A stretch of 64,000 bases of DNA from Dehalococcoidia bacterium (GCA_965204685.1 OZ242004.1:79091-143090); one strand, 5' to 3'; numbered from the stretch's first letter, positions 15,709 to 59,749 are shown. The notes: generated by a model not told the origin, from the sequence alone. Numbers and translations are program-made.

Positions 15709-16117
15709 CTGACACAGGCAGGTATTTTCGCATCATGTTAATGAACCTCATTTTTCACAATAGACCCGGGTGACAGTCGCCAGTACGCGCGATGGCCTGC
15801 CGGCATGCAGATCCGAACAAAACAGTTGCAAACGGCGACCGCTTCGAACTGTCCGGAGAAGTTCGACATTTGCCGGAGCGGCAGGCCACCGCGGCGGAGG
15901 AGTTTCGCACCGCGTCCACGTGTGTGGTCTCCCCGCAGTCGTCGCATCGGAATTCCAGGTAGTGGCTCCAACTACTGACCAGTTGCATGGTTTGCCGTTG
16001 CATCCTTCTTTTTCGTATTTAGAGCCTTTCCTAATGACCAGGCGGCGCTGCTGTTGCTTTTGCCGACGGTTCGGGTCGGTCGCCGACTGACAGTTCCGGC
16101 GCAAAAAGCCGGGAAAC

Positions 16118-16197
16118 CTTACACCATAATCCGTATTTTAGTCCGTATTTTTAGATCTTCTTTTATATGGGTTCTTGTATGCTTGCGCTTGATCAAC
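16118..16197. promoter_or_regulatory. conserved AT-rich control block, copy 1
   Basis: CTTACACCATAATCCGTATTTTAGTCCGTATTTTTAGATC..TATATGGGTTCTTGTATGCTTGCG. Homologous blocks at 24974, 36105 and 59669. Lies 435 bp upstream of the start at 15683 and 62 bp upstream of the stub ORF. Confidence 0.5.
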
Positions 16198-16258
16198 CAT
16201 GAAGTCGGGCCCGGACCCGCAATGCAGTCGTTGCTGGGGATCCGGGTCGGAGAAAGGC

Positions 16259-19400: not shown

Positions 19401-22400
19401 GAAGGGCGCGCGCTGGGCTGCCGGGCTGAGACCGCCGTGCTGCAGCACGGGATACTGGCTGGCCGTGCCGAAGTCCCAGGGGTCGTCGCCGCTGCCGTCC
19501 AGGTCCAGGTCCGCGTTCCAGTCGGCGTAGATGCCGGCGTAGCCCGTGGGCCCTTGCAGCCCCGCAGTGGTCTGCCCCACGCCGGCCGGGCTGCTGCTCA
19601 AGCCGGAGGTTTGGGTATCCCAGTAGGCGGCGTCCACCGCGCCGGAGACGTGCGCGCCGGTCAGGCCGCCGGCCGCGCCGCCTTCGGCCGTGGCCGACCC
19701 GGTCGCGTAGCTGGCGGTTACGCTGCCATTGTTGTCGCCCACCAGTCCGCCGGCCCGCTGGCCGGCGCTGGACACCGGCCCGGTGGCGTAGCTGGTCTTG
19801 ATGGAACCGCCGGCTGCGTTGCGGCCCACCAACCCGCCGGTGTTGTCGGCCCAGCCCGAAACCGCGCCCCGGGCGTAGCTGGCCTGGATGAGGCCCTGGT
19901 TGGCGCCCGCCAGGCCCCCCACGCCCTGACCTCCGACCTTTCTCCCGGCCACGTTGGCCCGGGACGAACTGCCCGTGATGAAACTCCCTGACCTGGCCTC
20001 CCCCACCAGGCCGCCCACGTTGCTGATCCCGGACACCGCCCCGGTCACGTGGACGTTGCTGATGATGCCGTGGCTGTACCCGGCCAGGGCGCCGATATAC
20101 CCCTTGCCCGACACGTTGACGTTCTCCAGCCGCAGGTTGCGCACGATGCCGTTGTAGGCAATGATATAGAAGAGGCCCTTATCGTCGTGCTTGCCGTCCC
20201 CCGCATCGGTGGGCAGTCCGTAGATGTTGACCCGGTTCAGCACTTCGTCGGTGAAGGGCGTGTCCAGCGTGTTGATGTACAGGTTCCGTATGGCGTGCCC
20301 GTTGCCCTCGAAGATGCCGCGCCAGTAGTTCCCTCCCTCTATGTCCTGCGCTATGGGTCGCCATCCCTCGCCGTCGTTGCCAAAGTAGTCGTCGCACGCG
20401 CCGGGACCCTGCGCTCCTCCCGGGTGCCCCCCGTACCAACTCCGGCACCTGGCGGAGCCGTCGGGATTATGCGACCCGTTCCAGTAGTGGTCGCCGGGGT
20501 CGGCCCGGCCGTTGCCGTTGGTGTCGAAGTCCAGGTCGGCCATCAGCTCGTAACCCATGCAGCCATCCCCGGGACAGCCCATCCCACGTCTGGCGTTGGG
20601 GTATGCCGATTGGTAAGCGTTCCGGGCACTGTTGGGATAGGGGTTGTGGTCCCAACCATAGGCGCCCCTGCCGTCCTCGTCATAGCGGATGGCATAGAGC
20701 TGGTCCAGGCTGTGCACCTCGATGAGGCCGTCGTCGTCACGATCGTAGTCGATGCCCTGGGCCGGCTGCTGGTTGGAGGGCCTCGTGACCGGCTCGGTGG
20801 ACTCCGGAGGGTCGGGCATCGCCGCCCGCTGGGCCGCCACGCTGGGGCCGGTGTCCCGCAGCACCGGGAAGTCCAGCGACGTGCCGAAGTCCCAGACGTG
20901 GGAGTCGCCGCTGCGGTCCCTGAGATCGTCCCAGAGAGCGTAGATGCCCGTGTAGCCCGTGGGCCGCCGCAGCTCGGCGGTGGTGAGACGCCTGCCGGCT
21001 TGACCGGCGGCTCGGCTGTTCAACCAGTAGCTGGCGGTGATATTGCTTCTGTCGGCGTGTCCCGGCCTTACGTTCGGGAGCGTGCAGCCGATACACCGAT
21101 GGCCATTTTTGGTGCTTACGGACCTGTGATTACCAGCCAGCCCCCCCACGTAACCGTCGCCGGACACCGCTCCCAGGGCGTAGCTGGCCGAGATGGGCGC
21201 ACCGTTATCGCCGACCAATCCCCCGATATATCTTCGGCCGGACACGTCGCCGGTGGCGTAACTGGCGAAGATCTCGCCTGCGTTATCGCCCACCAGGCCG
21301 CCCATGAAATTCGCATTGCCCGATACCCGGCCCGTGGCGTAACTGGCCACGATGCTGGCCCGGATGGGGGCGCTGTCCCAGCCGATGCGGCGAGTGGTGC
21401 TGTAGCCAACCAGGCCGCCGTAATAATCGGTCCCGGATGCGACTGCGGTTACGTCAGCCGTGGAGTAGCTGCGCACGATGCGACCGCCATAGTTCGACCC
21501 GACCAGTCCTCCCACAAAACTGTTCGTGCTCCAGACCTCGCCAGAGGAATGACTGTCTGTGATTGCACCGCGGTTCTGCCCCACCAGCAAGCCGGTCACC
21601 CGCCCGTCGGATACCGACCCGGTCACGCTGGCGTTGCTGATCGCGCCGCGGTTCTTCCCCACCAGAGCGCTCACGTATATTCCTTTGCCGCTACCGCGAA
21701 CTTGCGCGTTCTCCAGCGCCACGTTGCGGATGACGCCGGTCTCTCCAAGCTCCCGAAACAACGCCTGATACCGGTCATCTCTACTGATGTACAGGTAGCT
21801 GATGGCGTGGCCGTTGCCGTCAAAGACAGCGGCGTATTCGCCGATGGGCAGCCAGCCCTGGCCGTCGTTCACGTGCCCGCCGTCAACCGCTCTTGGATAG
21901 TCGCCGGCGTCGGCCCGGCCGTTGCCGTTGCGGTCAAAGTCCAGGTTGGCGGCCAGCTCGTAGCCCTTGCAACCGCTCTGGGGACAGCCCGCCCCGTTGG
22001 CAGTGATGCCGGGGAAGGCCCCTTCGTACTTGTCGTTGGCATCCGCAATGGCGGAACCGCTGGCGGAGCCGTCGCCGTCAAGGTCAAAGCGGATGGCGTC
22101 CAGCTGCGCCAGGCTGCACACCTCGATGAGACCGTCGTCGTCATCGTCGTAGTCGTCGCCGGCCTCCGGCTGGCAGCCGCCCGCGAAGGAGTCCGCCCCC
22201 GTCACCACCGTAACCGCCTGCGACCAGTCGCTTACGCCGCCGTCGTTGCCGGAACGCACGCTCACCGTGTAGGTCGCGCCGCTCTCCAGGCTCTCGAACG
22301 TCGCCGTCCGCGCGTCGGCGCCCAGCCGCTGCTCGGTGGCGTCGCCGTCGGCGTTTTCCAGCCGGGCCACGTAGTAGTCGGGCAGATCGCCGCTGCCCGG

Positions 22401-24907: not shown

Positions 24908-24973
24908 CTTCCTGATTGGATCGGGTCTTCCCGGCGCGGTGGCTGCTTTTCCCGGCGCGGAAAGCGGCGCCAA

Positions 24974-25056
24974 CTTACACCAGAAACGGTATTTCAGTCC
25001 GTATTTTTAGACCATCTTTTGTATGGGTTAATGTATGCTTGCGGTTGGTCAGCTAT
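24974..25056. promoter_or_regulatory. conserved AT-rich control block, copy 2
   Basis: CTTACACCAGAAACGGTATTTCAGTCCGTATTTTTAGACC..TTTGTATGGGTTAATGTATGCTTGCG. Lies 111 bp upstream of the A1 start and 36 bp upstream of stub 2. Confidence 0.5.
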
Positions 25057-25091
25057 GCAGTCGTTGCTGGTGGTCCGGTCCGGAGAAAGGC

Positions 25092-25193: not shown

Positions 25194-25195
25194 GA

Positions 25196-25251: not shown

Positions 25252-28200
25252 TTACCCGGACTGGGCCGCCTCGATTTCCTTCAGGGCGGCGGCCACCGGC
25301 ACCCAGCGGACCCAGGCGCTCCCCCGGTCCGCCAGTTCCTGCGCCTCCGCCGCCGTCATCGGCGTCAGCGACCCGTCGGAGACGCTCTCCCCAAAGGCCA
25401 ATAGCGCCCGGTCCCAGCGGTCGGTGTGGGCCTTGTAGCTCACCCACTGCGGGTCGTTGCGCCATTGGTACATCTGCGCGATGAGCGCCGCGTACTTCCT
25501 CGCCACCGGCGCGTCGAAGGTGTCGCTGACCCGATTGCCGTCGCTGTCCTGGGCCGTGACCGTAATCGTCGCCGTGCCCACGGACACTCCGGCAAGCGTC
25601 AGCCTGGAGAAGTCCGACGCAACGGACACCGTGGCAATGGCGTCGTTCGAGGACGCGGCGGTGATGGTCAGCGTGTCGCCGTCGGCGTCGCTGAACACAC
25701 CCGAAAGGGACACGTCCTGTGTAGATCCGACTTCCAGCCCGGACCGGTCGTCGATGGCCGACGCTACCACCGGCGCGGCTTTCACCGACACCATGAACGT
25801 GTCCGCGCCGGTGCCGCCGTTGCCGTCGTCGGCAGTGACCGTGATGCTCGCCGTCCCACGGGCCTGCGCACTCACCGTCAACGTGGAGTAGTTGGGCGCC
25901 ACGGAGACGGTAGCCACGGCCTCGTCGGAGGAGGCGGCGGTGATGGTCAGGCTGTCGCCGTCGGCGTCGGTGAACACGCTGGACAGGGAAACCTGCTTGG
26001 TCCCGCTCTCGTTGACGATGGTGGCCTCGCCGATGGCGTTGTATACCGTGGGCGGCCGCTCAGAAATGTCCTCGATCAGCGCGCGCTGGGTCGCCGGGGT
26101 GATGCTGTTAATTTTCAGCACCGGGTACTGGCTATCCGTGCCAAAGTCCCAAGGGTCGTCGGCGCTGCTGTCGCCGTCCAGGTCCACGTTCCAGTCGGCG
26201 TAGATGCCGGTGTAGCCGGTGGGTTGCCGCAACTGGTCCAGACTCACGGTTGCCCCGAATTCCGGGCCGGACCACTCGGTCTTCGTTCGGTATGAGTAAC
26301 CGGCAATGATCCGGCTGGCACCGCCCACGACCGATCCAACTAGGACCCCGTCCGGTCGGCCCACAGCGTAGGTGGCCTCGACGACATTGCTATTGTACCC
26401 AATCAAGGACCCCAACGCTCCGATGTTTCTGAGCGCCACCGGGCCGGAGCCAGTGACGCTGCCGGCGGCGTAGGCGGCTGTTACCGTCCCCGCGTTCCGC
26501 CCCACCAGACCGCCGATGTAATAGCCGTCTCCCTCGACGCTGCCGGTGGCGAAGCTGGCGGTGATGGTGCCCCTGTCGGTGTTGAACCCAACCAGGCCGC
26601 CAAAGTTCCTGCCCTCGCCGGTTACGACGCCGGTGGCGTAGCTCTCCCTGATGACGCCATCATTCTTTCCAACCAAGCCGCCGACATTGCTGTGAGGGCT
26701 ACGACCTCTGTAGGGTTGGGTTTCTTCAATCCCGGTGACGCTGGCCGTGGCATAGCTGCCTTGGATGGCGCCATAGTTGGTTCCCACCAGTCCGCCCAGG
26801 ACGGAGCCCCGGTTGGAGACCGCGCCGGTAACGTAGCTGTTGCGGATTTCACCGTGGTTCGTTCCGGCCAGTCCGCCCGCGTTTACACGCGCGCAGCCGT
26901 CCTGCGCCGGGCACCGGGACACGTTCACCGCTTCCAGACCGAGGTTGCGGATAACCCCGCCGGAGGCGACTCCCTCGAACATTCCTACGGAAGCCTGATC
27001 CATGGAATATGAGCCATTTATCCTGTAGTCGGTTGCGACGGACTGCTTCTCTATCGTCGAGTCGATGTAGAGGTTTCGGATGATGTGCCCGTTGCCTTCG
27101 AACACGGCGTTGTAGTCGTGGGTGTCGATGCCGATGGGCAGCCAGCCGTAGCCGGAGTTCCAGTAAGCGTCGCCGGCGTCAGCGCGGCCGTTCCCGTTGG
27201 TGTCGAAGTCCAGGTCCGTAGTCAATTCGTAACCGATGCAGCCCGTCTGAGGACAGCCCATGCGCTCCAGCGGGTTGAGGAAGCCCTCGTGGAGCGGGCC
27301 GCCATGGTCGCTGTATCCGTCGCCATCCACATCCCAGCGCATGGCGTCCAGCTGGGCCAGACCGGATATTTCGATGAGGCCGTCGTCGTCAGTGTCGTAG
27401 TCCACGGTCCGCGGCGGAGCGAGCGGCTCGACGGGAGCCTCCAGCGCCGTGGACGGTGATCGCCACACCAGTTGCAGAGTGTAGGTTTTCTTTGCCATTT
27501 TTGCGCTGTCCAAAAGCCATTCTGAGCCAGTTTCTGACCGAGCAGACCCCATTCCTTTGAACCATTGTGACCCGCCGATTTCAATGGTGGTCACGCCCGG
27601 GCTCAGATTAATGGACAAAGACCTGGGGGTGTAGCGATCCACGTTGTTCTGCATCGCGCCATCCAAAGGCATAGGACCAGGGTACACAACCGCCTGGCCA
27701 CGCACAAAAGCCCACGCAAAGCCGGCGCCGTATCTATAAGTAGTTAGCGGGTACCCGGCCTTGAAGCCCCCGGTGACCTGCAACTCCGTGACGCTGTCCG
27801 CCACATGCACCACGTAGTGGTGCCGGTCGGGTGTGAACCCCGGATAGAACGTGATGTCCGATGCCGTCGAAACGCTCTCGACCGTCAGGTGGTCTTCGCA
27901 CATGATGAACGCGATCACGCCAGCTTTGGGGGCGGGCCGGCGGTCGGGGTCCGGCTCGCAGGGAGGCATCAGAAGCTCTTTGCCCGTGCTGGCCGGCGTC
28001 GCAGCCGCGGCCGGCGTGCATGGCGCGCGCTGGTCGTCCGGATTCAGGCCGCCGTACTTCAGCACGGGATACTGGCACGACGTGCCGAAGTCCCAGGGGT
28101 CGTCGGCGTTGCCGTCGCCGTCCAGGTCCACGTTCCAGTCAGCGTAGATGCCGGCGTATCCGGTGGGCGACTGCAACTCGGAGGTGGTCTTACCTGCACC

Positions 28201-31200
28201 CACTCCGCTGGCGCCTTGGCCAGAGGCGCGGGTGTCCCAGTAACTGGCTGAGGCCCTGCCCTGGCTATGATTGAATCCGACCAGTCCGCCAACGTTTTTG
28301 CCGCCGCCCGACACCGGGCCGGCAGCATAACTAGCCGTAATGACGCCGAGGCCATCGTTATAACCGACCAGTCCGCCTATGTTTTCGCCCCCCCTCATGA
28401 CATCGTTTATGCGAACGCCATCTCCACCCGCGACGCGGCCTGTGGCATAACTGGCGATGATCTTGCCGACGTTGAATCCGACCAGTCCGCCTACGTCCCG
28501 CCCGTCGCCGGACACCTGCCCTGCGGCGTAGCTGGCGATGATCTTGCCTCCGGCTGCGTTGACCCCGACCAACCCGCCGACATCAAACCCCCCGCTGACT
28601 GAACCGGTCATGTACGCGCCGGCAATCACGCCCGAGTTCTGCCCCACCAGCGCGCCGACCTGCCGGTTATTTGTGAAATCGTCTGTGACGGACGCGGAAA
28701 CCAGCCCAACATCGCGCACCACGCCCGGATGAACGATAGTGTGGAACAGACCAACACGCGAGGCCACCACATCATTGATGTAGAGGTTGCTGATGGTGTG
28801 ACCGTTACCGTCGAATGTAGCCCGGAAGCCCGATCCATCGTCGTGCATGGGCGTCCAGCCGTTTCCGCCGTTCCAATAGGCATCGCCGGCGTCGGCTTTG
28901 CCGTTCCCGTTGGTGTCGAAGTCCAGGTCGGTGACCAGCTCGTAGCCAATGCAGCCGTTCTGGGGACAGCCCATGGCGCGGGCGGGATCGGGGAAGGCGG
29001 CCGCGTAGTGTTTCCGGTATTCAGCGCGGTTGGGGCTGCCGTCCCCGTTGACGTCCCAGCGGATGGCGTCCAACTGCGCCAGGTTGGAGATTTCGATCAG
29101 ACCGTCGTCGTCAGTGTCGTAGTCGACGCCCCCGGAGTCGCCGCCGACGGTTGGCGTGTCAGCCCGGCTGCGGTGCTTCAACATTGGATATTCGCTTGAC
29201 GTACCGAAGTTCCAAGGATCGTCAGCATTGCCGTCTCCGTCCAGGTCCACGTTCCAGTTGGCGTAGATGCCGGTGTAGCCGGTGGGTTGCTGCAGCGTCG
29301 CAGTGGGATGGCCGGCGCCCGCGTGGAACTGATGGGATCCGGGCGCTGGAACGGTCCCGAAGGGACTGCGATCTGGGAGATGGCCGGTAACATCGGTGTT
29401 CCAGTACGAGTCTGTCGTGGTGCTATCGTCGTAGCCGAGCAGGCCGCTGACGTAGTAGCGACCGCCGGACACAGTGCCAATGGCGTAACTCGCCGTGACC
29501 GGCGTGCGACTGAACCCAATCAGACCCCCAACGTAGTCGGCCCCGCTGGGAGAGGTGACGTTGCTGGATGAGTGACTGGCAATCACGTAGCCCGGAGAGT
29601 CGGAGGCGCCGACCAATCCACCGGCCCTCGAGTCGTAAGCGCCAACTGTGTTGACCACCCTTCCCGCCGAGCACCCGGTGATGACGGCTCCTACATTGTC
29701 AGCTACCAACCCGCCGACGGTGTTGTTGCCCGTTACGTTGCCGTTGAAGGAACTGGCTATGACGACGCTGGTTGACCTGGTCGATCCCACCAATCCACCG
29801 ACCAGATTCCGCCCGCTTACCGAACCGGTGGCGTAGCTGTCAGTGATTTTGCCGGCGTTGTGGGCCGACAGCGCGCCCACTGTGTAGCCTCCGGTCACGT
29901 TAACGGATTCCAGACTGAGATTGTGAACCTCCGCGCCCAGATCTACGTGACTGAACAACCCCAGAGAACCCCTGCCACTGTTGATGTAAAGATTGCTGAT
30001 GGTGTGGCCGTTGCCGTCGAAGATGCCGCTGAGCCTAGGCGGGTCCCAACCCTCGCCGCCGTTCCAATAGGCATCGCCGGCATCTGCCCTGCCGTTGTCA
30101 TTGGTGTCAAAGTCCAGATCGGCCATCAGTTCATAGCCTTTGCCCGGATCCGAATGCAGGTAGTTGTACAACTCAGCCAACGTGTTGATGTTAGTCAAGT
30201 TCGGGTCGTCAGTTGTGTCCTCGTAACCTACTGGAGCGCAACCCGGCTGGCCCGCCACCACCGTATTGAGCGATGTGGCGTCGTCGTTGTCGATGATGGC
30301 CAGTGTCAGCGGCACAGCCGTCAGGGAAGACGCGCTGGCCGCGGCGTTCAGGATGATGGTCTCGTCGTCATCGTCAACGGCGTCATCCACCACGGTGATA
30401 GTGGACACGCCGGCCGTGGCGCCGGCCGTGATGTTGACGGTGGCCGGCGCCAGGGTGTAGTCATCTCCCGCCGTGGCCGTGCCGCCGGTGGTCAACGCAA
30501 CGCTCACCCCGCCCGGCCCGGCCGGACTGGACAGCCCGGCGGTAACGGTAACTGCGGGGCCGCCCTCCGCCGGCGTTCCGTCGGCAGCCAGCATGAGCGC
30601 GGAGCCGCAGGCGGCCACTGCGGTGAGTTCGCCCTGGAGGGTGTCGGTACTTGCCAACAGGGTGTAGTTGGCCGCCTTGAAGCCGCCGTGATCCCGCAGC
30701 GAGTAGGTCACGCTCAGGGTGTGCCTTCCCGGCGTGGCCGCCGGGAAGGCTCCGCCCACCACCAGGCCGCCGGCCCGAAAGTCCGAAAGCTCCGAGGACA
30801 GCACGCCCACGCCCGTGGCGGCGGACGTGTCAAAGGTCGCCGCCACGCTCCCATCGGCGGGACGGCTGACCACCGTCACCCCGCCGATGGCTGTGATGGG
30901 TCTGGGCGTGATGGTGTAGGACGCCACCGCCGGACGCGACGGCAACGTGTACTTGTCCGCGTAGGCCGCAGCGACCGCCAGCGTCCCCATGTTGATGGCG
31001 TAGCTCCCCGCATCATTCCCCGCCGCCCGGGACAGCGCTCCCGCAACCACGTCTGCCGCCGCGTCGCCGTCCACCAGCCCGCTCACCGTGTAGCTGAGAT
31101 CGTCGGCGCCCCCGTACTCCCGGCTGGGACTGCTGGGCGTGATCGTCAGCGTGCGCGTCTGCGCCGCCGGCTGCCCCGGCGTTCCCTTCACCGCGACCCA

Positions 31201-33168
31201 CCGGCTCTCCAGCCAGTCGGTCCGGTGGCCCGCGCGGGTCCCGCCGCCCCGGGTGCGCCGCAGTTCCACCTCGTACTCCCTGCCGTTGGTCAGCCCCGTG
31301 ATGACGTGGCTGTTCCCGAAAACCTGCTCCCCTTCCGCCGCCGTGGCCTCCGGCGCGTCCTCCCCGTAGCCGATCTTCCAGCCCGGCAGCCCCACCTGGT
31401 TCAGCCAGGCGGTCGTCCCCGCCTCCCGCCACCGCGCCCAGTACAGGTTCGGCGCGCGCGTATCCGTATGGGCCTCCCAGCTCAGGGTCAGTTGCCCGTC
31501 CCCCAGCGTCAGGTCCACCCCCCTGGGGTCCTCCACCGTCCCCTGCTCCACGATCACCCGGTAGGTCTTGGTGTCCTTCCCGTCCAGGGAGGTCACCTCG
31601 ATGGTGATCAGACCGTAGCCCACGAAGGCCCGCCAGGGGCCGCTGGCCTCCCCGCTCACCAACTCCCCCTTGGCGCGCCGGACCTCACCCTGGGCCTCGG
31701 TACCCTTCACCACGATGGACTTGGCCCCGGGCGCCGCCGTCGTCACCACCGCCGTCAGGTAGAGCGTCCCATCCTCTTCCACACCTTCCTCCGGCCCCAG
31801 CATCGGCACCCGCACCCGGTAGTCGTACACCCCGGCCGTCAGCGCCGGACGCAGCTGGTAGGCCGGACCGGCGTAGGGCACCAGGTGATCCAGGTCCGGC
31901 TGCCGGCCGGTGGCACGGTGCACCGCCAGGCCCTGCAGCGTCGCGTCCCCCGACGCCGCCGCCGACGCCCGCACCACCGTCACTGTGTAGCTCCGGCTGG
32001 TGTAGTCGTCCGGCGCCGTGGCCTTCACCCTGATTACGTTCTCCCCCTCCGACAGCGGGATGGCCCCGCTGGCCTGACCGCTGACCACCACCGCCCCATT
32101 CACCGTGATGGTCCCCTTGTCGTACCGGTTGGTGGCGGTCACCCGCACCTCCGCCACGCTGTAGGGCGCCCACCCCCGGTACTCGCCCTGGCTCCCGAAG
32201 AAGACCGGATGCAGCTTCACCTGGGACACCCTCAGGTCCGACAGCTTCGCCAACGGCGCGTGGGTCGCCGTCACCCCGTAGACCCGCCGGGTCTGACCGT
32301 CCTCGGCGGTGACCACCACCTCAACCCGCAGCGGCGTGTTGTCGTGCAGGAAGAACCGCTCGCTCTTGGACCCGCTCCCCACCGCCTTGCCGTCCACCGT
32401 GATGGTGGCCCCGGCGTGGCTGGCCGTGGGCCGCAGACTGGCCCAGCCGTAGCCCAGCGCCAACGTGGCCCCGTACTCCCCGGTCTGGGGCGCAAAGGCC
32501 GGCCGCAGCGCGATGCTGCCGCTCCGCAGCAGCTCCAGCCCGCTGAGGGTGGCGTCCGAGGACACCGCCCGCTGCGGCTGCGGAGCCGGCTGCTGCGGCG
32601 CTGGCGTCGGCGTGGGCGTTGGAGTTGGCGTGGGTGTCGGCGTGGGCGTGGGTGTCGGCGTGGGTGTTGGCGTGTGAGTAGGGGTAGGAGTGGGCGTCTC
32701 CTCCTCCGGCTCTCCTCCCACGTAGCACGCCAGCTCCGCCTCCGTACCGGCCACCTCCCTGCCCTCGGCAGTCTCGTAAATGGTCTTGACCCGGAACCGG
32801 GTCTCCTTCCCCCTCTGGTAACTCCCCGGCCGGTACACCAGCGTGCTCCCCCGCAGCCGCGAGCTCTCCTCCTTCCCGTTCGGCAGCTTCAATGCGTAGT
32901 CGTAGGCGTACACCTCCCCGCCGGACCACTCCGGCGCGTCCCACAAGAAGGCCACCCGCTCCGTCTCCGCGATGCAGCGCAGGTTGGACACCGCCGGCGG
33001 CGCATCCTCCTGGGCCTGGACCAGCCCCGACGACCACAGCGCCAGCCCCGCCAGCCCTACGGCCACCAGCCCCGCCAGCAACAGCAGCGCGCTAAGCCGG
33101 TGCAACGGAGAAAGAGAACGGGAGATTCCGGCCAACTTTGCTTTCAGCTCGGGACTTGCTTTCAACAT
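25252..33168 (-). CDS. giant (2638 aa) modular surface protein, B-type (B1)
   Basis: The ORF track starts at 33273. ATG 33168 (MLKASPELK) is preferred: AAGGAT lies upstream and the start sits 23 nt after the stop of the preceding gene. Domain order, N to C:
- signal-anchor LSPLHRLSALLLLAGLVAVGLAGLALW
- FN3-like domain
- long (PT)n linker
- cadherin-like units
- FN3
- MBG/YDG
- one Calx-beta
- three Ca-loop+GLUG supermodules
- 2 Ig-like repeats
- C-terminal Trp-rich module. Confidence 0.9.
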   Translation of the reverse strand: MLKASPELKAKLAGISRSLSPLHRLSALLLLAGLVAVGLAGLALWSSGLVQAQEDAPPAVSNLRCIAETERVAFLWDAPEWSGGEVYAYDYALKLPNGKEESSRLRGSTLVYRPGSYQRGKETRFRVKTIYETAEGREVAGTEAELACYVGGEPEEETPTPTPTHTPTPTPTPTPTPTPTPTPTPTPTPAPQQPAPQPQRAVSSDATLSGLELLRSGSIALRPAFAPQTGEYGATLALGYGWASLRPTASHAGATITVDGKAVGSGSKSERFFLHDNTPLRVEVVVTAEDGQTRRVYGVTATHAPLAKLSDLRVSQVKLHPVFFGSQGEYRGWAPYSVAEVRVTATNRYDKGTITVNGAVVVSGQASGAIPLSEGENVIRVKATAPDDYTSRSYTVTVVRASAAASGDATLQGLAVHRATGRQPDLDHLVPYAGPAYQLRPALTAGVYDYRVRVPMLGPEEGVEEDGTLYLTAVVTTAAPGAKSIVVKGTEAQGEVRRAKGELVSGEASGPWRAFVGYGLITIEVTSLDGKDTKTYRVIVEQGTVEDPRGVDLTLGDGQLTLSWEAHTDTRAPNLYWARWREAGTTAWLNQVGLPGWKIGYGEDAPEATAAEGEQVFGNSHVITGLTNGREYEVELRRTRGGGTRAGHRTDWLESRWVAVKGTPGQPAAQTRTLTITPSSPSREYGGADDLSYTVSGLVDGDAAADVVAGALSRAAGNDAGSYAINMGTLAVAAAYADKYTLPSRPAVASYTITPRPITAIGGVTVVSRPADGSVAATFDTSAATGVGVLSSELSDFRAGGLVVGGAFPAATPGRHTLSVTYSLRDHGGFKAANYTLLASTDTLQGELTAVAACGSALMLAADGTPAEGGPAVTVTAGLSSPAGPGGVSVALTTGGTATAGDDYTLAPATVNITAGATAGVSTITVVDDAVDDDDETIILNAAASASSLTAVPLTLAIIDNDDATSLNTVVAGQPGCAPVGYEDTTDDPNLTNINTLAELYNYLHSDPGKGYELMADLDFDTNDNGRADAGDAYWNGGEGWDPPRLSGIFDGNGHTISNLYINSGRGSLGLFSHVDLGAEVHNLSLESVNVTGGYTVGALSAHNAGKITDSYATGSVSGRNLVGGLVGSTRSTSVVIASSFNGNVTGNNTVGGLVADNVGAVITGCSAGRVVNTVGAYDSRAGGLVGASDSPGYVIASHSSSNVTSPSGADYVGGLIGFSRTPVTASYAIGTVSGGRYYVSGLLGYDDSTTTDSYWNTDVTGHLPDRSPFGTVPAPGSHQFHAGAGHPTATLQQPTGYTGIYANWNVDLDGDGNADDPWNFGTSSEYPMLKHRSRADTPTVGGDSGGVDYDTDDDGLIEISNLAQLDAIRWDVNGDGSPNRAEYRKHYAAAFPDPARAMGCPQNGCIGYELVTDLDFDTNGNGKADAGDAYWNGGNGWTPMHDDGSGFRATFDGNGHTISNLYINDVVASRVGLFHTIVHPGVVRDVGLVSASVTDDFTNNRQVGALVGQNSGVIAGAYMTGSVSGGFDVGGLVGVNAAGGKIIASYAAGQVSGDGRDVGGLVGFNVGKIIASYATGRVAGGDGVRINDVMRGGENIGGLVGYNDGLGVITASYAAGPVSGGGKNVGGLVGFNHSQGRASASYWDTRASGQGASGVGAGKTTSELQSPTGYAGIYADWNVDLDGDGNADDPWDFGTSCQYPVLKYGGLNPDDQRAPCTPAAAATPASTGKELLMPPCEPDPDRRPAPKAGVIAFIMCEDHLTVESVSTASDITFYPGFTPDRHHYVVHVADSVTELQVTGGFKAGYPLTTYRYGAGFAWAFVRGQAVVYPGPMPLDGAMQNNVDRYTPRSLSINLSPGVTTIEIGGSQWFKGMGSARSETGSEWLLDSAKMAKKTYTLQLVWRSPSTALEAPVEPLAPPRTVDYDTDDDGLIEISGLAQLDAMRWDVDGDGYSDHGGPLHEGFLNPLERMGCPQTGCIGYELTTDLDFDTNGNGRADAGDAYWNSGYGWLPIGIDTHDYNAVFEGNGHIIRNLYIDSTIEKQSVATDYRINGSYSMDQASVGMFEGVASGGVIRNLGLEAVNVSRCPAQDGCARVNAGGLAGTNHGEIRNSYVTGAVSNRGSVLGGLVGTNYGAIQGSYATASVTGIEETQPYRGRSPHSNVGGLVGKNDGVIRESYATGVVTGEGRNFGGLVGFNTDRGTITASFATGSVEGDGYYIGGLVGRNAGTVTAAYAAGSVTGSGPVALRNIGALGSLIGYNSNVVEATYAVGRPDGVLVGSVVGGASRIIAGYSYRTKTEWSGPEFGATVSLDQLRQPTGYTGIYADWNVDLDGDSSADDPWDFGTDSQYPVLKINSITPATQRALIEDISERPPTVYNAIGEATIVNESGTKQVSLSSVFTDADGDSLTITAASSDEAVATVSVAPNYSTLTVSAQARGTASITVTADDGNGGTGADTFMVSVKAAPVVASAIDDRSGLEVGSTQDVSLSGVFSDADGDTLTITAASSNDAIATVSVASDFSRLTLAGVSVGTATITVTAQDSDGNRVSDTFDAPVARKYAALIAQMYQWRNDPQWVSYKAHTDRWDRALLAFGESVSDGSLTPMTAAEAQELADRGSAWVRWVPVAAALKEIEAAQSG

Positions 33169-33191: not shown

Positions 33192-35990
33192 TTACGGGTG
33201 GGTGGATTCCGGCAGAGTGATGCTGGCGTGCACTCGCTCGCCTTTGCCGGCCTCGTTTTTGGCCCGCACCCAAACTCTGTAGCTCGTGCCCGCTTCCAGC
33301 TTCTTGAAGGTTGCGGTCGTCTTATGGGCCTTGTTGTTCTTGGTCGTGCCCTTGCCGCCGCTTTCGGGCTTGACGTGGGCGATGTAGTGGTTGGGGGCGC
33401 CGCCGCGATCCGGGGCCTCCCAGGTGACGGTTATTGCGTCCGCCGTGGCCGTCAGTTCCAGATTCACCACCGGGCCGGGCCGGGTTGCCGCATCTTGCGT
33501 GACCACCGACGCGTCGAATTCATCGCTGATCCGGTTGCCGTCGGCGTCCTGGGCCGTAACGGTGATGGTCGCCGTGCCTTCGGCCACGCCGGAAAGGGTC
33601 AGCTTGGAGCCGTCGGAGTCCACGGTCGCGGTGGCTACGGCGTCGCTGGAGGAAGCGGCGGTGATGGTCAGGGCGTCACCGTCAGCGTCGCTGAAAACGC
33701 CGGACAGAGACACGTCCTGCGTGGCATCCACCTCCAGGCCGCTCACGTCGGCCAGGGGCCGGGCCACCACCGGCGTAGCCTTCACCGTGACGTTGAAAGC
33801 ATCCGAAACTGAGCCGCCTCTGCCGTCGGCGGCGGTGACCGTGATGGTTGTCGTTCCCCGGGTCTGGGCGCTCACCGTCAGCGTGAGGTAGCCGGGGGCG
33901 ATGGACACCGTGGCCCTGGCTTCATCCGAGGATACGGCGGTGATAGTCAGGTTATCGTAGTCGGCGTCGCTGAACACGCCGGACAGGGAAACCGTCTGCG
34001 TACCGCTCTCGTGAAGGATGGTGGCGTCTGAGATGGCGCTGGACACCGTGGGCGCCCGGTTGGGCGCGGCCTGCTGCTCCTGCGGTGGCGTGCAGGTAGC
34101 GCGCTGGTCGTCCGGGTCCAGGCTGCCGTATTTCAGGACGGGGTACTGGCAGGCGTTGCCGAAGTCCCAGGGGTCATCGCTGCTACCGTCGTCGTTCAGG
34201 TCCACGTTCCAGTTGGCGTAGATGCCGTCATATCCGGTGGGCTTCTGGAGCTGGGCGGTGGTTTTGCCGGTTCCGCCATTGGGCTTGGATATGCCCGAGG
34301 TATCGACGTCCCAGTAGCTGTCGGTAGTAGCGCCTTGGGGCACATGATAATTTCCGATCAGTCCGCCAATTTTGCCGTCGCGGCCGCCGGAGGGCTGGCC
34401 GGTGGAGTAACTGGCAATTATGGTTCCTCTGGCATATCCGATCAGACCGCCGGCTGCATCACTGTGGAGGGGGGTTTCGGGAAAGGCGGGGTCGGCGATC
34501 TCGCCGGCGGCGGATGGGTTGCCGGTAGCGTAACTGGCAACGACTGTGCCGGACGGGTAATTTTCCTCGTGGGGCATATATCCAATCAGACCGCCGACGT
34601 TGTAACTGCCGGACACGTTGCCGGTGGCGTAACTGGCGGCAGTGAAGTCTCCCTTTGAGCTCAGTCCTACCAGGCCTCCAATCCCGCGGCCGGCGGAGGA
34701 CACGTCGCCTGTGGCGTAGCTGGAGATGATGGAGCCGCCTTCGTTGGTACCGACCAGCCCGCCCACGTCATCGGTTTCTCCGGTCACGCCGGCCGTGGAG
34801 TGGCTGTCAACTATCAGACTGGATTCCAGGGCGGCTCCAACCAGCCCGCCAACGCTGTTGATGCCGGACACCGTGCCGGTTGCGTAGCTGTCGCGGATGG
34901 TTCCGTAATTTCTCCCGACCAGGCCGCCGACGTGAGCGCTCTTGCTGGATACGTTCACGGCTTCCAGCCCCACGTTGCGAATTATGCTGCCGTCTCTGGC
35001 AAACTCAAACAAACCGACCGCCCAATAATATTCAAGGCGGATATGCAGGTTACTGATGGTGTAGTCGTTTCCCTCAAAGATGACCTCGGTTCCCTGGGTT
35101 CCAAACTCCAAGGGCAGCCAGCCTTGACCGTCGTTCCAGTAGGCGTCATCTGCGTTGACCTCCCCGTCCTCGTTGGTGTCGAAGTCCAGGTCGGCGGTCA
35201 GTTCATAGCCCTTGCATCCCGTCTGGGGGCAGCCCATGCCGGCCACGGCGTTGGAAAAGGCGGCGGCGTAGCGGTTGGCGTCCTTGGCAGCGCCGTCGCC
35301 GTCCGGGTCCCACCGGATGGCGTGCAACTGGGGCAGACAGGACACTTCAATGAGGCCGTCGTCGTCGGAATCATAGTCGCCGCTGCCGGGCGTATCAGTG
35401 CAGAGAGTATCAACAATCGTGGGTTCCGGGGGTTCCGTGGGCTCGTCGTTGTCCTTGATGGTAAGGGTAAGGGGTGACGCGGTGAGGGAGAGGGCGGCAA
35501 CCGTGGCGTTGAGGACGATGGTCTCGTCATCATCGTCAGTCCCGTCGTCGATGATGGCGATGTAGGTGAAGCCGGCTGTCGCGCCGGCTGGGATCTTGAT
35601 GGGATCGGACGACAGGTTGTAGTCGGCGTTGATGGTGGCGGTGCCGCCGGCGGTCAGGGGAACGGTGACGCCGTCCGAGCCGGCCGGGCTGTCCAGGACG
35701 GCGACCACGGTAATCCAGGGTTTCATCCCCTCGGCCGGCGCTCTGCTGGCGCCCAGCATGAGCGTGGAGGGCGCGGCCGGGGTCACAGCAAGCTGGCCTT
35801 GCGGCGTGACAGGGGTGGGATCGTAGCCCGCTCCCCGGGCGGTTCCGGACGGGTACAGCAGCAGCCCTGCCAGCAGCACGACGGCCAGCAGCAGCGCCGC
35901 GCCGTAGCAGCGCCGGGGCGGTGGGGGCCAACGAAGTCGATGAAGCGAGAGAGCAGGACGGAGAATCAGGGGCGGCTTTGCTTTCAACAT
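33192..35990 (-). CDS. 932-aa family member C (Calx-beta + one Ca-loop/GLUG supermodule + 2 Ig-like repeats + C-terminal FN3)
   Basis: ATG 35990 (MLKAKPPLIL) has AAGGAA upstream; its leader and first codons parallel those of B1. Signal-anchor is ALSLHRLRW..AALLLAVVLLAGLLL. Motifs seen: GGTATINADYNL..DDDDETIVLNA; DYDSDDDGLIEVSCLPQLHAIRWDPDGDG; GLUG repeats; FN3 ITVTWEAPD..YRVWVRAKN. Confidence 0.9.
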   Translation of the reverse strand: MLKAKPPLILRPALSLHRLRWPPPPRRCYGAALLLAVVLLAGLLLYPSGTARGAGYDPTPVTPQGQLAVTPAAPSTLMLGASRAPAEGMKPWITVVAVLDSPAGSDGVTVPLTAGGTATINADYNLSSDPIKIPAGATAGFTYIAIIDDGTDDDDETIVLNATVAALSLTASPLTLTIKDNDEPTEPPEPTIVDTLCTDTPGSGDYDSDDDGLIEVSCLPQLHAIRWDPDGDGAAKDANRYAAAFSNAVAGMGCPQTGCKGYELTADLDFDTNEDGEVNADDAYWNDGQGWLPLEFGTQGTEVIFEGNDYTISNLHIRLEYYWAVGLFEFARDGSIIRNVGLEAVNVSSKSAHVGGLVGRNYGTIRDSYATGTVSGINSVGGLVGAALESSLIVDSHSTAGVTGETDDVGGLVGTNEGGSIISSYATGDVSSAGRGIGGLVGLSSKGDFTAASYATGNVSGSYNVGGLIGYMPHEENYPSGTVVASYATGNPSAAGEIADPAFPETPLHSDAAGGLIGYARGTIIASYSTGQPSGGRDGKIGGLIGNYHVPQGATTDSYWDVDTSGISKPNGGTGKTTAQLQKPTGYDGIYANWNVDLNDDGSSDDPWDFGNACQYPVLKYGSLDPDDQRATCTPPQEQQAAPNRAPTVSSAISDATILHESGTQTVSLSGVFSDADYDNLTITAVSSDEARATVSIAPGYLTLTVSAQTRGTTTITVTAADGRGGSVSDAFNVTVKATPVVARPLADVSGLEVDATQDVSLSGVFSDADGDALTITAASSSDAVATATVDSDGSKLTLSGVAEGTATITVTAQDADGNRISDEFDASVVTQDAATRPGPVVNLELTATADAITVTWEAPDRGGAPNHYIAHVKPESGGKGTTKNNKAHKTTATFKKLEAGTSYRVWVRAKNEAGKGERVHASITLPESTHP

Positions 35991-36104
35991 GGTGTTGTTT
36001 CCTTGTGGGTAGATTCCGGCTGCTGGCGAACTTCGATCCATATCCGGACACTGACAGTCCCCAAGGGGAACCACGACCTCCAGCGGAGCGGAAAGCGGCG
36101 CAAA

Positions 36105-36185
36105 CTTACACCAGCAACGGTATTTCAGTCCGTATTTTTAGAGCCTCTTTTGTATGGGTTGGTGTATGCTTGCGCCTGATCAGCC
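36105..36185. promoter_or_regulatory. conserved AT-rich control block, copy 3 (between gene C and the fused kinase-regulator)
   Basis: CTTACACCAGCAACGGTATTTCAGTCCGTATTTTTAGAGCCTCTTTTGTATGGGTTGGTGTATGCTTGCG. GTAT-core boxes at 36120, 36132, 36152 and 36164. Confidence 0.55.
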
Positions 36186-36254
36186 ATACAGTCGGGCCCG
36201 GACCCCGAAGGCCGTTGCCACAACGCCGGCGGCAGTCCGGGCCGGGAGGAATAC

Positions 36255-38690
36255 ATGGACCAGCCGGAACAGCCATACCGGGAGATCCAGGCGCTTCAGG
36301 AGCGTCTGTCCCGCCTGAGTGAGGCCAGCCGCCGCATCAACGAGAGCCTGGACTTCGACGCCGTGCTCCAGGGGGTCCTGGACTCGGCCCGCTCCCTGAC
36401 CGCCGCCCGCCACGGGGTGATGATCCTCTTCGACGAAGGGGGACAGGTCCAGGACTTCCTGTCCTCGGGGTTGACCGGGGAGGAGTCCGGGCGGCTCTGG
36501 CTGATGCCCGAGGGACTGCGCATCTTCCAGGCTCTCACCGACATCTCCGAACCGGTGCGGCTGCCCGACCTGACGGCCCACGTCCACGCCCTGGGCTTCA
36601 CGGACTTCACCATTCCCATGGCGGTGGGCCCGGTCTTCCGCTTCCTGGCGGCGCCCATGTTTCACCAGGGAGTGCGGGTGGGCCACGTGTTCGTGGGCGG
36701 CAAGGACGATGGTGAGGAGTTCACCCAGGCCGATGAGGAGACGTTGGTGATGTTCGCGTCCCAGGCGGCCCTGGTCATCGCCAACGCCGGCGCCCACCGG
36801 GAGGAACGACGGGCCCGGGCCGACCTGGAGACCCTGGTGAACACGTCTCCGGTGGGCGTGGTGGTCTTCGACGCCCAGACGGGTCTGCCGGCGTCGGTGA
36901 ACCGGGAGGCCGTGCGCATCGTGGACGGCCTGCGGGAGGAAGGTCAGCCGGTCGAGGACCTGCTGGAGGTGTTGACCTGCGTGCGGGGCGACGGCCGGGA
37001 GGTCTCCCTGCGGGACTTCACCCTGGCGGAGTTGCTCAGCTCCGGGGAGACGGTCAGGTCCGAGGAGATCACGCTGCGGGTCCCCGATGGTCCCAGCATC
37101 GGCGTGCTGCTCAACGCCACCCCCATCCAGGGTGAGGACGGAGGGGTGACGTCGTTCGTGGTGACCCTGCAGGACCTGACTCCGCTGGAGGAACAGGAGC
37201 GGCTGCGGGCCGAGTTCCTGGCCATGGTCAGCCACGAGCTCAGGACCCCATTGGCGGCGGTGAAGGGGTCGGTGGACACGCTGCTGGAGGCGGCGGGGGA
37301 GCTGGACCCGGCGGAGACGGCCCAGTTCCACCGCATCATCCGGGACCAGTCGGACCGGATGCGCCACCTGATCGGCGACCTCCTGGATGTGGCGCGCATC
37401 GAGACCGGCCACCTGCCGGTGACGCCCGAGCCCTCGGAGTTGTCAACCCTGGTGGAGGAGGCGGTGAGCCGGTTCACGGCCGGAGGAGACAGGAACCCGC
37501 TGAGCGTGGAGTTGGCGGAGGACCTGCCCCTGGTGCTGGCCGACAAGCTGCGCGTCCTCCAGGTGTTGGGCAACCTGCTCTCCAACGCCGCCGGCTACTC
37601 GCCGGAGGGTTCACCCATCGTGGTGAGCGCGGTGCGCGATGGGGTGCACGTGGCGGTGTCGGTTACCGACCGGGGCCGGGGCATACCGGCGGAGTTGCTG
37701 CCGGAGCTGTTCCGCAAGTTCTCGCGGGCTTCTGAACGGGACACGGCATCGGCCGTGGACGGGTCGGGGCTGGGTCTCGCCATCTGCCGGGGGATCGTGG
37801 AAGCCCACGGGGGCCGCATCTGGGCCGAGAGCGACGGCCCGGGGCTGGGGGCCCGGTTCACCTTCACCCTGCCGGCTTCGGAGACCGCGGCCTTTGTCGC
37901 TACGGCTCCCGCCTCCGGCGGCTCCCGGCGGCAGGCCCGGGGCCGGGTGCGCGTGCTGGCCGTGGACGACGACCCCCAGGCTTTGCGCTACGTGCGGGAC
38001 GTGCTCACCCGGGCCGGCTACGCGGCCGTGGTCACCGGCGACCCGGCCGACGTGCCCCGGCTCATGTCCGAACACAAGCCCCACCTGGCCCTGCTGGACC
38101 TGGTGCTCCCGGACACCGACGGCATCGAGCTGATGCACCAGGTCCACCGCATCGCGGAGGTGCCGGTGATCTTCCTGTCGGAATACGGCCAGGGCGACAC
38201 CGTGGCCCGGGCCTTCGACATGGGAGCGACGGACTACGTGGTCAAGCCCTTCTCGCACACCGAGCTGGCGGCCCGGATAAGGGCGGCGCTGCGCCGGGGG
38301 GTGGAACCCTCCCCGGGGGAGCCATCGGCGCCCCACGTCCTGGGGGAGCTGAGCATCGACTACGCCCGGCGCCAGGCGACCCTGGCCGGGGAGCCGGTGG
38401 AGCTGACGGCCACGGAGTACGCGGTGCTGTACCAGCTGGCGGTGCAGGCCCCCAACGTGCTGACCCACGGCCTGCTGCTCCGGCGGGTGTGGGGGCCGGA
38501 GCGGGTGGGCGAGGGCTGGCTGCTGCGGGACGTGGTGAAGCGGCTGCGCCGCAAGCTGGGGGATTCCGCCGCCAACCCCAGGTACATCGTCACCGAGCCC
38601 CGAGTGGGGTATAGGATGGCGGCGGAGATGGAGGAGCCATCGTCGTCCTATCCAGGGAACGTGGCGCCCGGCGCGGATGGTGTTATCTGA
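36255..38690 (+). CDS. cytoplasmic fused two-component protein: GAF-PAS-HisKA-HATPase_c-REC-OmpR/PhoB winged helix (811 aa)
   Basis: GGGAGGA RBS. No TM segment. The GAF-like region runs LDFDAVLQGVLDSARSL..VFVGGKD and is followed by a PAS-like region. H-box: FLAMVSHELRTPL. ATPase motifs: NLLSNAAGYSP, DRGRGIP, GSGLGLAICRGIVEAHGG. Receiver: RVLAVDDDP..LALLDLVLPDTDG..DYVVKPF. wHTH: ELTATEYAVLYQLA..YIVTEPRVGYRM. Confidence 0.92.
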   Translation: MDQPEQPYREIQALQERLSRLSEASRRINESLDFDAVLQGVLDSARSLTAARHGVMILFDEGGQVQDFLSSGLTGEESGRLWLMPEGLRIFQALTDISEPVRLPDLTAHVHALGFTDFTIPMAVGPVFRFLAAPMFHQGVRVGHVFVGGKDDGEEFTQADEETLVMFASQAALVIANAGAHREERRARADLETLVNTSPVGVVVFDAQTGLPASVNREAVRIVDGLREEGQPVEDLLEVLTCVRGDGREVSLRDFTLAELLSSGETVRSEEITLRVPDGPSIGVLLNATPIQGEDGGVTSFVVTLQDLTPLEEQERLRAEFLAMVSHELRTPLAAVKGSVDTLLEAAGELDPAETAQFHRIIRDQSDRMRHLIGDLLDVARIETGHLPVTPEPSELSTLVEEAVSRFTAGGDRNPLSVELAEDLPLVLADKLRVLQVLGNLLSNAAGYSPEGSPIVVSAVRDGVHVAVSVTDRGRGIPAELLPELFRKFSRASERDTASAVDGSGLGLAICRGIVEAHGGRIWAESDGPGLGARFTFTLPASETAAFVATAPASGGSRRQARGRVRVLAVDDDPQALRYVRDVLTRAGYAAVVTGDPADVPRLMSEHKPHLALLDLVLPDTDGIELMHQVHRIAEVPVIFLSEYGQGDTVARAFDMGATDYVVKPFSHTELAARIRAALRRGVEPSPGEPSAPHVLGELSIDYARRQATLAGEPVELTATEYAVLYQLAVQAPNVLTHGLLLRRVWGPERVGEGWLLRDVVKRLRRKLGDSAANPRYIVTEPRVGYRMAAEMEEPSSSYPGNVAPGADGVI

Positions 38691-59602: not shown

Positions 59603-59668
59603 CTTCCTGACTGGACCGGGTCTTCCCGGCGCGGTGGCTGCTTTTTCCGGCGCGGAAAGCGGCGCCAA

Positions 59669-59748: not shown

Positions 59749-59749
59749 T

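Follow-up and report, generated by a model that had tools for sequence, protein, structure and literature searches.

Four copies of an AT-rich block beside giant surface-protein genes of a Dehalococcoidia bacterium: a likely divergent promoter and operator for the adjacent fused kinase-regulator

In a 64,000-nucleotide stretch of the genome of a Dehalococcoidia bacterium (GCA_965204685.1 OZ242004.1:79091-143090, hereafter the window), an AT-rich block occurs four times upstream of genes for giant surface proteins, and its resident copy (copy 3) separates two of these genes on the minus strand from a plus-strand gene for a sensor kinase fused to a response regulator (hereafter the kinase-regulator). 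Our comparisons indicate that the block is a real, selected cis-regulatory module, and we think it likely that it serves as a compact divergent promoter and operator, in which boxes 1-3 of its four GTAT-type repeats would be half-sites for the winged helix-turn-helix (wHTH) domain of the adjacent kinase-regulator. The evidence comes from the copies in the window, from promoter signatures within the block, from its position in related genomes and from boxes that vary together with the recognition helix of the neighbouring kinase, which suggests that the kinase's own DNA-binding domain reads three of the four repeats. The features discussed are collected in Table 1.

The 23-nt core of the block, GTATTTNAGTCCGTATTTTTAGA, matches exactly at 16133, 24989, 36120 and 59684, all on the plus strand, in agreement with the four locations given in an earlier note on this DNA; no fifth match was found in the window at up to three mismatches, with none expected from 100 shuffles, and the paired-box pattern GTATK-N7-GTATK has six matches in the window vs 0.06 expected. 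A four-way alignment extends the conserved unit to ~120 bp in each copy, longer than the ~80 bp previously proposed. The 72-bp block cores contain 35-46% GC, compared with 65.8% across the window; three of the four are the window's most AT-rich 72-bp stretches and the remaining one is tied for fourth with several others, so the AT-richness claimed in the earlier note holds, with all four copies among the five most AT-rich stretches. The gene distances that it gave were also recovered, with 111, 115 and 112 bp to the ATGs at 24863, 35990 and 59557 and 435 bp to the Calx-beta ATG at 15683. Boxes 1-2 are identical in all four copies, and the four-box layout with 12-bp spacing within pairs stands as described earlier, except that box 3 of copy 1 is ATATGG instead of GTATGG. 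The slight shift already noticed in copy 4 is a 2-bp displacement of its box 4, which lies within a decayed half of the block: compared with copy 2, the giant-gene half of copy 4 is identical and its kinase-side half has decayed.

All giant genes of the window lie on the minus strand and are mutually paralogous, and remnants of a kinase gene adjoin the copies that lack a complete one. The stub open reading frames (ORFs) of copies 1 and 2 read MGQPCREIGVLRECLPRLSRASRRIN.. and MDQPCREIGVLRECLCRLSQDSRRIN.. (33 codons each), so the statement that a kinase start or stub lies on the other side of every copy is true of copies 1-3, and copy 4 has only a start-less remnant. In addition, each upstream giant gene has a terminator-like hairpin behind it on the minus strand, which adjoins the kinase stub (16375-16400, 25195-25235 and 59820-59860; in copy 2 it is GGGCGTCC-N10-GGACGCCC, without a T run). 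Because this hairpin/stub junction is common to copies 1, 2 and 4, these copies must go back to one tandem duplication of a giant gene, which took along the promoter and ~100 bp of kinase sequence. It might thus be argued that the copies are alike merely through recent tandem duplication or gene conversion and function as no more than a basal promoter, the more so as kinase stubs have hitch-hiked along with them, the junction is shared and the leaders of copies 2 and 4, a young pair, are 93% identical. We regard this as improbable, because the core has been kept at 74-90% identity between the four copies whereas the stub-side flank has diverged to 20-66% (the giant-gene-side flank, copies 2 and 4 excepted, is at 21-40%), because the kinase-side half of copy 4 has decayed beside an intact giant-gene half despite the 93% identical leader, and because the block is conserved in genomes whose kinases are just 70-82% identical. 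The state of copy 4 looks like selection on only that half which serves the giant gene; after the duplication, selection would have kept the promoter-operator part while the kinase stubs decayed.

Both ends of the block carry signatures of sigma-70-type -10 elements. In 33 copies from the clade of the window (clade A), only three positions, those of TAnnnT, are strongly conserved at the giant-gene side; TAnnnT stands on the minus strand at the aligned position in 31/33 copies (on the plus strand it reads A...TA), and the sister clades B and C carry TGnTAnnnT there. The CTTACACC at the left edge is not a box; it is the reverse complement of this conserved, putative -10 (TAAGTT) facing the giant gene. 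On the plus strand, box 4 has the conservation profile T, A, T, -, -, T (motif TG-TATAAT) in the same 33 copies, with a TATAAT consensus, and it stays GTAT(AAT) while boxes 1-3 change with the recognition helix; for these two reasons, we consider that in the clade of the window box 4 more probably belongs to the kinase-gene promoter than to the half-sites. Thus, of the four half-sites previously proposed, boxes 1-3 are retained and box 4, with its -10 profile and its lack of co-variation with the helix, is not. Boxes 1-3 lie in one common orientation within ~57 bp between the two -10 elements, with spacings of 12 and 20 bp, and the direct-repeat period is 12 bp in the clade of the window vs 11 bp in clades B and C. 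Within the interior of the block, conservation is highest in the box 3 region, TTnTTTTGTAT; the GTAT-like cores at boxes 1-2 are weaker. A second candidate for the kinase-gene -10 is TACAGT, 18 bp beyond box 4: four related loci (L003, L007, L015 and L016) have a perfect TATAAT at its position, and clades B and C have canonical TTGTGA-17-TAcAAT/TATAAT promoters on the kinase side, with box 4 at the -35 position. A sigma-54 reading of GGTTGGTGTATGCTTGC was rejected by eye, as the GG-to-GC spacing is 10 or 12 and not 11, and copy 1 has no GG.

The block is a recurrent companion of the kinase gene in related genomes. An iterated nhmmer profile found it on the plus strand in ~26 loci, ending ~50-60 bp before the kinase start, and with a small upstream-only database it was detected in ~40 of 80 homologous kinase loci, 50-170 bp upstream and in a single orientation; the proposal of the earlier note, which depended on the boxes being conserved in relatives, is borne out in this respect. 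Three loci obtained by exact protein look-ups again have the kinase gene divergent from one that encodes a large protein of Big_2, cadherin or fn3 type, and their intergenic block can be aligned with that of the window. The divergent neighbour is often a surface protein of cadherin, fn3, Calx-beta or Ig-like type; examples are homologs of the giant family at 63-73% identity (L001, L003, L005, L007), the L021 protein with its 10 cadherin domains, and fn3/He_PIG, Calx-beta/He_PIG and DUF11/fn3 proteins. Extra copies apart from the kinase gene also occur, some beside kinase stubs (L011, L025, L006) and some before surface-protein genes, in the tandem arrangement seen in the window. A unit that is ~120 bp long, AT-rich and multi-copy, with imperfect terminal inverted repeats, and that has relatives in loci partly rich in transposases and defence genes, could in principle be a miniature mobile element or recombination site that lies near these genes by chance. 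We give this idea the least credence among those considered: throughout ~1.1 Mb of related loci every copy is upstream of a kinase gene or stub, or beside a divergent gene, in constant relative orientation, and target-site duplications were not seen. The exact core was absent from genome and metagenome contig collections, in which the source genome and its very close relatives are not included, and it is therefore not a widespread repeat. Two mutually similar extra copies stand apart from the rest (L001 13652-13763 and L007 12488-12597), with boxes CCGTGTAA / GAG[CT]AATT / TTGTAT / ..; they have no kinase stub behind them and instead a short conserved ORF (..AYGHIMDGRW..), which may belong to the regulon of another paralog.

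The boxes change together within a locus, and they change with the recognition helix of the neighbouring kinase, which in the window is GEGWLLRDVVKRLRRKL. Clade B has CTGTGAG-N4-CTGTGAG plus TTGTGAG, clade C has sets of GTGAC, ATGAT, GTAAC or GTAAG that match within each locus, and L003 has GTC in three boxes. Within-locus similarity of boxes exceeds that after permutation in clade A (boxes 1-2 and boxes 1-3, p<0.0001) and in clade C, where boxes were read by eye from the alignment (boxes 1-2, p=0.006; boxes 1-4, p=0.0014), and these p-values overstate significance because the clades are few. Four helix classes accompany four kinds of box: GxWL[VL]R[DN]VVK goes with GTAT, SRRVRTAAKQ with TGTGAG, RPMRT.. 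with [GA]TGA[CT] or GTAAC, and GPVRNIVK with TGTAA. Alignment-free counts per 200-bp upstream region, whose significance is overstated for the same reason, agree with this: on the plus vs the minus strand, loci with a W-type helix have GTAT at 2.06 vs 0.67, RR-type loci GTGAG at 2.79 vs 0, RPM-type loci [GA]TGA[CT] at 2.35 vs 0.47 and GP-type loci TGTAA at 1.83 vs 0.17, so that each box k-mer is enriched in its own helix class only and on the plus strand only. Within clade A, the 19 loci with K at helix position 11 mostly have rTAT cores in boxes 1-3 (GTGT-type variants occur in several), whereas with R or S at this position boxes 1-3 are changed in 6/6 loci (ATCG/GTGG/GTGG-, GTCG/GTCT/GTCT- and ATCG/GTAG/ATAG-type), with box 4 remaining GTAT in 5/6 (ATAT in L020 and L071), and the kinase tree places these R/S loci in no fewer than two distinct regions. 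Half-site and helix thus match in 25 clade-A loci with at least two independent changes, as a correlation only. Position 11 lies between the equivalents of KdpE R193 and R200, four residues after the former (i+4), and therefore on the same helix face.

These patterns bear directly on an alternative in which the conserved divergent promoter is real but the kinase-regulator acts elsewhere, the boxes being bound by some transcription factor encoded separately, or just by RNA polymerase or nucleoid proteins drawn to AT-rich DNA. In favour of this alternative, the -10 signatures are the strongest conserved features, box 4 is independent of the helix and AT-rich tracts of GC-rich genomes are often generic promoter or UP-like elements. 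We nevertheless hold it to be rather unlikely, because the boxes track the helix of the neighbouring kinase over four classes and at least two independent changes from K to R or S, because orientation-specific direct repeats at 11-12 bp are the site type expected of this domain family, and because block and kinase gene are inseparable in ~40 loci.

Several observations weigh against our preferred interpretation, in which the adjacent kinase-regulator reads boxes 1-3. No -35 hexamer is conserved for either promoter in clade A, the expected columns having low information content, and a simple scan for sigma-70 consensus promoters and terminators over 35800-36400 gave no canonical site. The kinase-side -10 is ambiguous between its two candidates, 36166-36171 and 36187-36192. 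The repeat period of 12 bp departs from the 10-11 bp of characterised OmpR/PhoB sites, and copy 1 stands as far as 435 bp from the Calx-beta gene. About half of the 80 loci have no profile match, though several of them show the same architecture by eye, and the divergent neighbours also comprise several unknown proteins and one TnpB (as well as one histidine kinase). Finally, reading the clade C boxes by eye weakens that part of the comparison, and members of a clade inherit their upstream sequence along with their helix class, so that the co-variation amounts to ~5-7 independent events. Taken with these points, the earlier proposal of an operator that is read by the adjacent output domain and serves both the kinase and the giant genes gains partial support, from the fixed position of the block in ~40 loci, from the concerted boxes and from their tracking of the helix; box 4 and the 12-bp spacing speak against it. 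Similarly, of the OmpR/PhoB-like direct-repeat architecture suggested before, the non-random direct repeats are upheld, with a period that is off the characterised 11 bp and a box 4 that is probably a promoter element.

The kinase-regulator has the domains that such a role would need. Kinase, receiver and DNA-binding domain lie in a single 811-aa ORF, an architecture found in all 120 top homologs. The OmpR-type output domain named in the earlier note is confirmed by a match to PF00486 (60.2 bits, cut-off 26.2, residues 712-788), next to a receiver domain PF00072 (83.2 bits, residues 567-676), and the closest PDB matches over the full REC-wHTH part are KdpE, MtrA, RegX3, BaeR and PrrA, with KdpE the closest solved relative (E = 5e-33). 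Across 17 homologs there is no variation at H327, D571/D572, D615, S642 and K664. The family is likewise invariant at the arginines that correspond to R193 and R200 of KdpE, both of which KdpE requires for DNA binding (PMC3264566). None of the NCBIfam equivalog models, those for KdpE and MtrA included, reaches its cut-off on this protein (YycF, 122 vs 340 bits). Pfam found neither an AraC match nor a periplasmic sensor of the type of hybrid two-component systems (HTCS); the sensor consists of GAF and PAS domains and the scan gave no membrane part, so the protein seems to be cytoplasmic.

An action of the block as RNA, as a leader element, riboswitch or small RNA on either strand, was also weighed, because an imperfect inverted repeat joins 36097-36112 with 36161-36176 and single-sequence folds have z values of -2.6 and -2.9. 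Nonetheless, the whole window has no Rfam match at gathering thresholds, RNAalifold on 20 block homologs finds zero conserved pairs on both strands, and the conserved features are direct repeats and not paired ones. The two inverted arms are the -10 regions, which account for the single-sequence fold and, as they face outward, would direct transcription away from the interior; an RNA function is accordingly very improbable. As a separate observation, the leader of the kinase gene contains a GC-rich hairpin, GGCCCGGAC..GTCCGGGCC (36196-36204 / 36236-36244), whose end lies immediately ahead of the Shine-Dalgarno sequence; a GC-rich hairpin of some kind is present at this place in all relatives, the sequences are unalignable and RNAalifold gives no consensus structure for the leader.

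Returning to the divergent promoter and operator, we propose the following mechanism. The GAF-PAS part of the kinase-regulator would sense a cytoplasmic signal, the phosphoryl group would pass from His327 to Asp615 within the same protein or dimer, and the REC-wHTH part would then dimerise and bind the boxes. The left-edge -10 (TAAGTT, minus strand) would fire into the giant surface-protein gene, and the right part of the block would hold the -10 of the kinase-regulator gene, either in box 4 (TATGCT) or in the TACAGT 18 bp beyond, with a predicted plus-strand start at ~36178 or ~36199. Because boxes 1-2 start ~11 bp upstream of a -10 lacking a conserved -35, as in pho-box geometry, the most likely effect would be that the phosphorylated regulator, acting through boxes 1-2, activates the giant gene in a class-II-type manner. 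Box 3, ~10 bp upstream of the -10 in box 4, would provide autoregulation of the kinase gene; if TACAGT is the true -10, boxes 3-4 would fall at -47 to -30. As boxes 1-2 are identical in all four copies, one regulator would drive four transcription units, namely g3b-g3a, g2, g4 and, from 435 bp, the Calx-beta gene.

This arrangement resembles several known systems and differs from each of them. In Escherichia coli, the pho boxes of PhoB are tandem 11-bp direct repeats that lie upstream of the -10 and replace an absent -35. Like PhoB, whose family binds as a head-to-tail dimer, the protein of the window is by its sequence a REC-wHTH regulator associated with direct repeats, and its putative site starts ~10-11 bp upstream of the -10, in place of a -35; the regulator gene lies beside its presumed targets, which makes autoregulation likely. 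The arrangement in the window departs from that of PhoB in its period of 12 bp vs 11 bp, in having GTAT as half-site core and boxes directed away from the giant-gene promoter, in the extent of its three boxes over 38 bp vs two tandem 11-bp units, and in a regulator that carries a soluble GAF-PAS kinase within the same polypeptide. Sites of WalR/YycF/VicR, regulators tied to cell-envelope functions, have the form TGTWAH-N5-TGTWAH. The half-site TGTAT(G/A) of boxes 3-4 resembles TGTWAH, and the direct hexamer repeats and the link to the surface or envelope are further similarities; the spacer is N6 vs N5, the sensor architecture is another one and, by the YycF score (122 bits, cut-off 340), the proteins are not orthologs. 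The half-site rule of the OmpR/PhoB family, available as a general statement (PMC3264566), is exemplified by KdpE (4KNY/4KFC, 3ZQ7), which binds AT-rich 6-bp direct-repeat half-sites, TTTATA and TTTACA, placed 5 bp apart with an 11-bp period (PMC3264566). KdpE differs in being a separate protein that is phosphorylated by the membrane-bound KdpD and controls a K+ pump, not surface proteins. DNA-binding sensor kinases are known from the HTCS of Bacteroides and from Vibrio cholerae ChiS (bioRxiv 10.1101/2020.01.10.902320). Like these, the kinase-regulator appears from its domains to unite kinase, receiver and DNA-binding functions in one polypeptide with adjacent genes as targets, whereas the Bacteroides HTCS and ChiS are membrane-bound with periplasmic sensors and have an AraC-type (Bacteroides) or non-canonical (ChiS) DNA-binding domain in place of the OmpR-type winged helix.

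Table 1. Features of the window discussed in the text; positions are counted from its first nucleotide
Feature	Position	Strand	Evidence and remarks
Predicted -10 hexamer TAAGTT, giant-gene promoter	36103..36108	-	TAnnnT at aligned position; predicted start near 36096
Box 1, GTATTT	36120..36125	+	Core co-varies with helix position 11
Box 2, GTATTT	36132..36137	+	12 bp after box 1; conserved T run behind; co-varies with helix position 11
Box 3, GTATGG	36152..36157	+	20 bp after box 2; conserved TCTTTT run in front; co-varies with helix
Box 4, GTATGC, overlapping -10-like TATGCT (36166-36171) of kinase gene	36164..36171	+	Consensus in relatives TGTATAAT; -10-type conservation profile; no co-variation with helix
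Alternative candidate -10 of kinase gene, TACAGT	36187..36192	+	18 bp after box 4; positional homolog of TACAAT/TATAAT in clades B, C, L003, L007, L015, L016
Block copy 1	16096..16221	.	435 bp upstream of Calx-beta gene; -10 TAAGGT 16116-16121; boxes 16133, 16145, 16165 (ATATGG), 16177
Block copy 2	24952..25071	.	111 bp upstream of giant gene 16434-24863; -10 at 24972-24977; boxes 24989, 25001, 25021, 25033
Block copy 3 (resident copy)	36084..36209	.	Between probable giant-gene operon (minus) and kinase-regulator gene (plus); best nhmmer match, 124 bits; aligned with other three copies and kinase-upstream regions of L001-L003
Block copy 4	59647..59770	.	112 bp upstream of giant gene 51188-59557; left half intact (-10 59667-59672, boxes 59684, 59696); right half decayed (boxes 59716, 59730)
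Fused sensor kinase and response regulator, 811 aa, GAF-PAS-HisKA-HATPase_c-REC-Trans_reg_C	36255..38690	+	Pfam
Calx-beta, LapA, fn3 giant protein, 2690 aa	7611..15683	-	Pfam
Giant surface protein, 2809 aa: Big_2, cadherin-like, fn3, Glug, MBG_2, He_PIG	16434..24863	-	Pfam; signal-peptide-like N-terminus
Giant-family gene g3a	25252..33168	-	ATG ~20 nt past g3b stop; without own block
Giant-family gene g3b, 932 aa, first gene behind copy 3	33192..35990	-	Signal-peptide-like N-terminus
Giant surface protein, 2789 aa, closest paralog of 16434-24863	51188..59557	-	Sequence comparison
Kinase 5' stub beside copy 1, 33 codons	16259..16360	+	ORF
Kinase 5' stub beside copy 2, 33 codons	25092..25193	+	ORF
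Start-less kinase-stub remnant (..ASRRVNSLVGKLD*) beside copy 4	59774..59815	+	Sequence

Among the giant genes, the ATGs at 24863 and 59557 are preceded by GGAGG and that at 35990 by AAGGAAAC. The region 25252-36074 holds two genes, g3b ending in TAA and g3a beginning at the ATG at 33168 with a near-copy of the ribosome-binding site and first codons of g3b (CAAGGAwACAACrCCATGTTGAAAGCAAG); a single frameshifted gene was rejected here on account of the clean stop followed by a new ribosome-binding site and ATG. Since g3a starts so close behind the g3b stop and lacks a block of its own, the two are probably co-transcribed as an operon. Near copy 1, an ORF of 82 aa with CxxC..CxxxxC (15755-16003, minus strand) starts exactly 115 bp from the block, matching the giant-gene distance; support for a gene was not obtained, with no Pfam match and no relative among 82 loci. 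A C8-GACTT-G6 inverted run stands directly before the Calx-beta ATG (15690-15712). In related loci, G homopolymers of 9-15 nt occur in the leader or extreme 5' end of divergent giant genes (L001 ~7665-7680, L002, L003), and these may mark slipped-strand phase variation or, alternatively, may be homopolymer errors introduced by long-read assembly. Elsewhere in the window, a plus-strand island encodes an 11-repeat RCC1-like protein (40876-42660), a SWIM zinc-finger protein (5183-7081) and a protein with an M78/IrrE-like peptidase domain (45089-46582); the RCC1-like protein is an eukaryote-like repeat protein, and L002 has an LRR+RCC1 protein near its kinase. The ORFs directly behind the kinase gene, 38677-39294 and 39395-40075, have no Pfam match.

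The kinase-regulator belongs to a large family; no account of this family or of the element came up in a literature search that covered sponge Chloroflexi, cadherin, histidine kinases and kinases fused to an OmpR-type domain. More than 535 relatives were found in species-representative genomes; the top 120 database relatives are 73-83% identical to it, often with several per contig, and the best 79 of the more than 535 are almost all from Dehalococcoidia or SAR202 metagenome-assembled genomes (MAGs), with a few from Acidimicrobiia (including Ca. Poriferisocius) and one from Latescibacterota. Kinase homologs at 60-72% identity occur in Acidimicrobiia (OM1 bin76, Aplysina aerophoba; Ca. Poriferisocius) and a Latescibacterota MAG (L022, L026, L029, L049), of which L029 and L022 retain GTAT/TGTA-type boxes upstream of the kinase, and this suggests that the module has been transferred between phyla of sponge symbionts. 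Two of the records, MPNA bin76 and MPNC bin87, represent symbionts of the sponge Aplysina aerophoba (PMC5649159). Paralogs accumulate within genomes: MAG isolate 507f7452 (L002, L009, L018, L028, L043) has at least five, with helices GWLLRNVVK, SWLVRDVVK, GWLVRDVVK, PWLVRDMVR and LRPMRTAVR and with box sets that differ wherever the block is detectable, consistent with insulated parallel regulons; unlike this isolate, L005 and L007 from one genome have nearly the same boxes. In the window, positions 1-126 (plus strand) are the 3' end of a gene for a second kinase-regulator paralog; its final 42 codons show 59.5% identity to residues 770-811 of the main protein, and at least two family members therefore flank the gene cluster. 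A wider picture, which we offer tentatively and think somewhat less likely than not, is that this is a fast-diversifying family with up to five or more paralogs per genome, in which helices and operators co-diversify and each paralog has a private regulon of giant adhesin-like proteins; the module would then be a switch by which sponge symbionts interact with their host, and it would have been passed between Chloroflexota, Acidimicrobiia and Latescibacterota.

Sponge-associated Chloroflexota are uncultured, and their giant proteins with cadherin-, fn3- and Ig-like domains are thought to mediate contact with the host. We know of nothing on how these giant "eukaryote-like" proteins are controlled in sponge Chloroflexota, and the module described here would be a first concrete handle on their regulation in uncultured sponge symbionts. 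It would represent a testable regulatory link between a soluble GAF-PAS sensor fused to a response regulator, an operator of ~60 bp and four target transcription units in one locus. In addition, the series of helix and box variants (K vs R with GTAT vs GTGG; W- vs RR- vs RPM-type) may be regarded as a natural specificity map for an OmpR/PhoB-type winged helix, and such a map could serve the prediction of regulons in MAGs.

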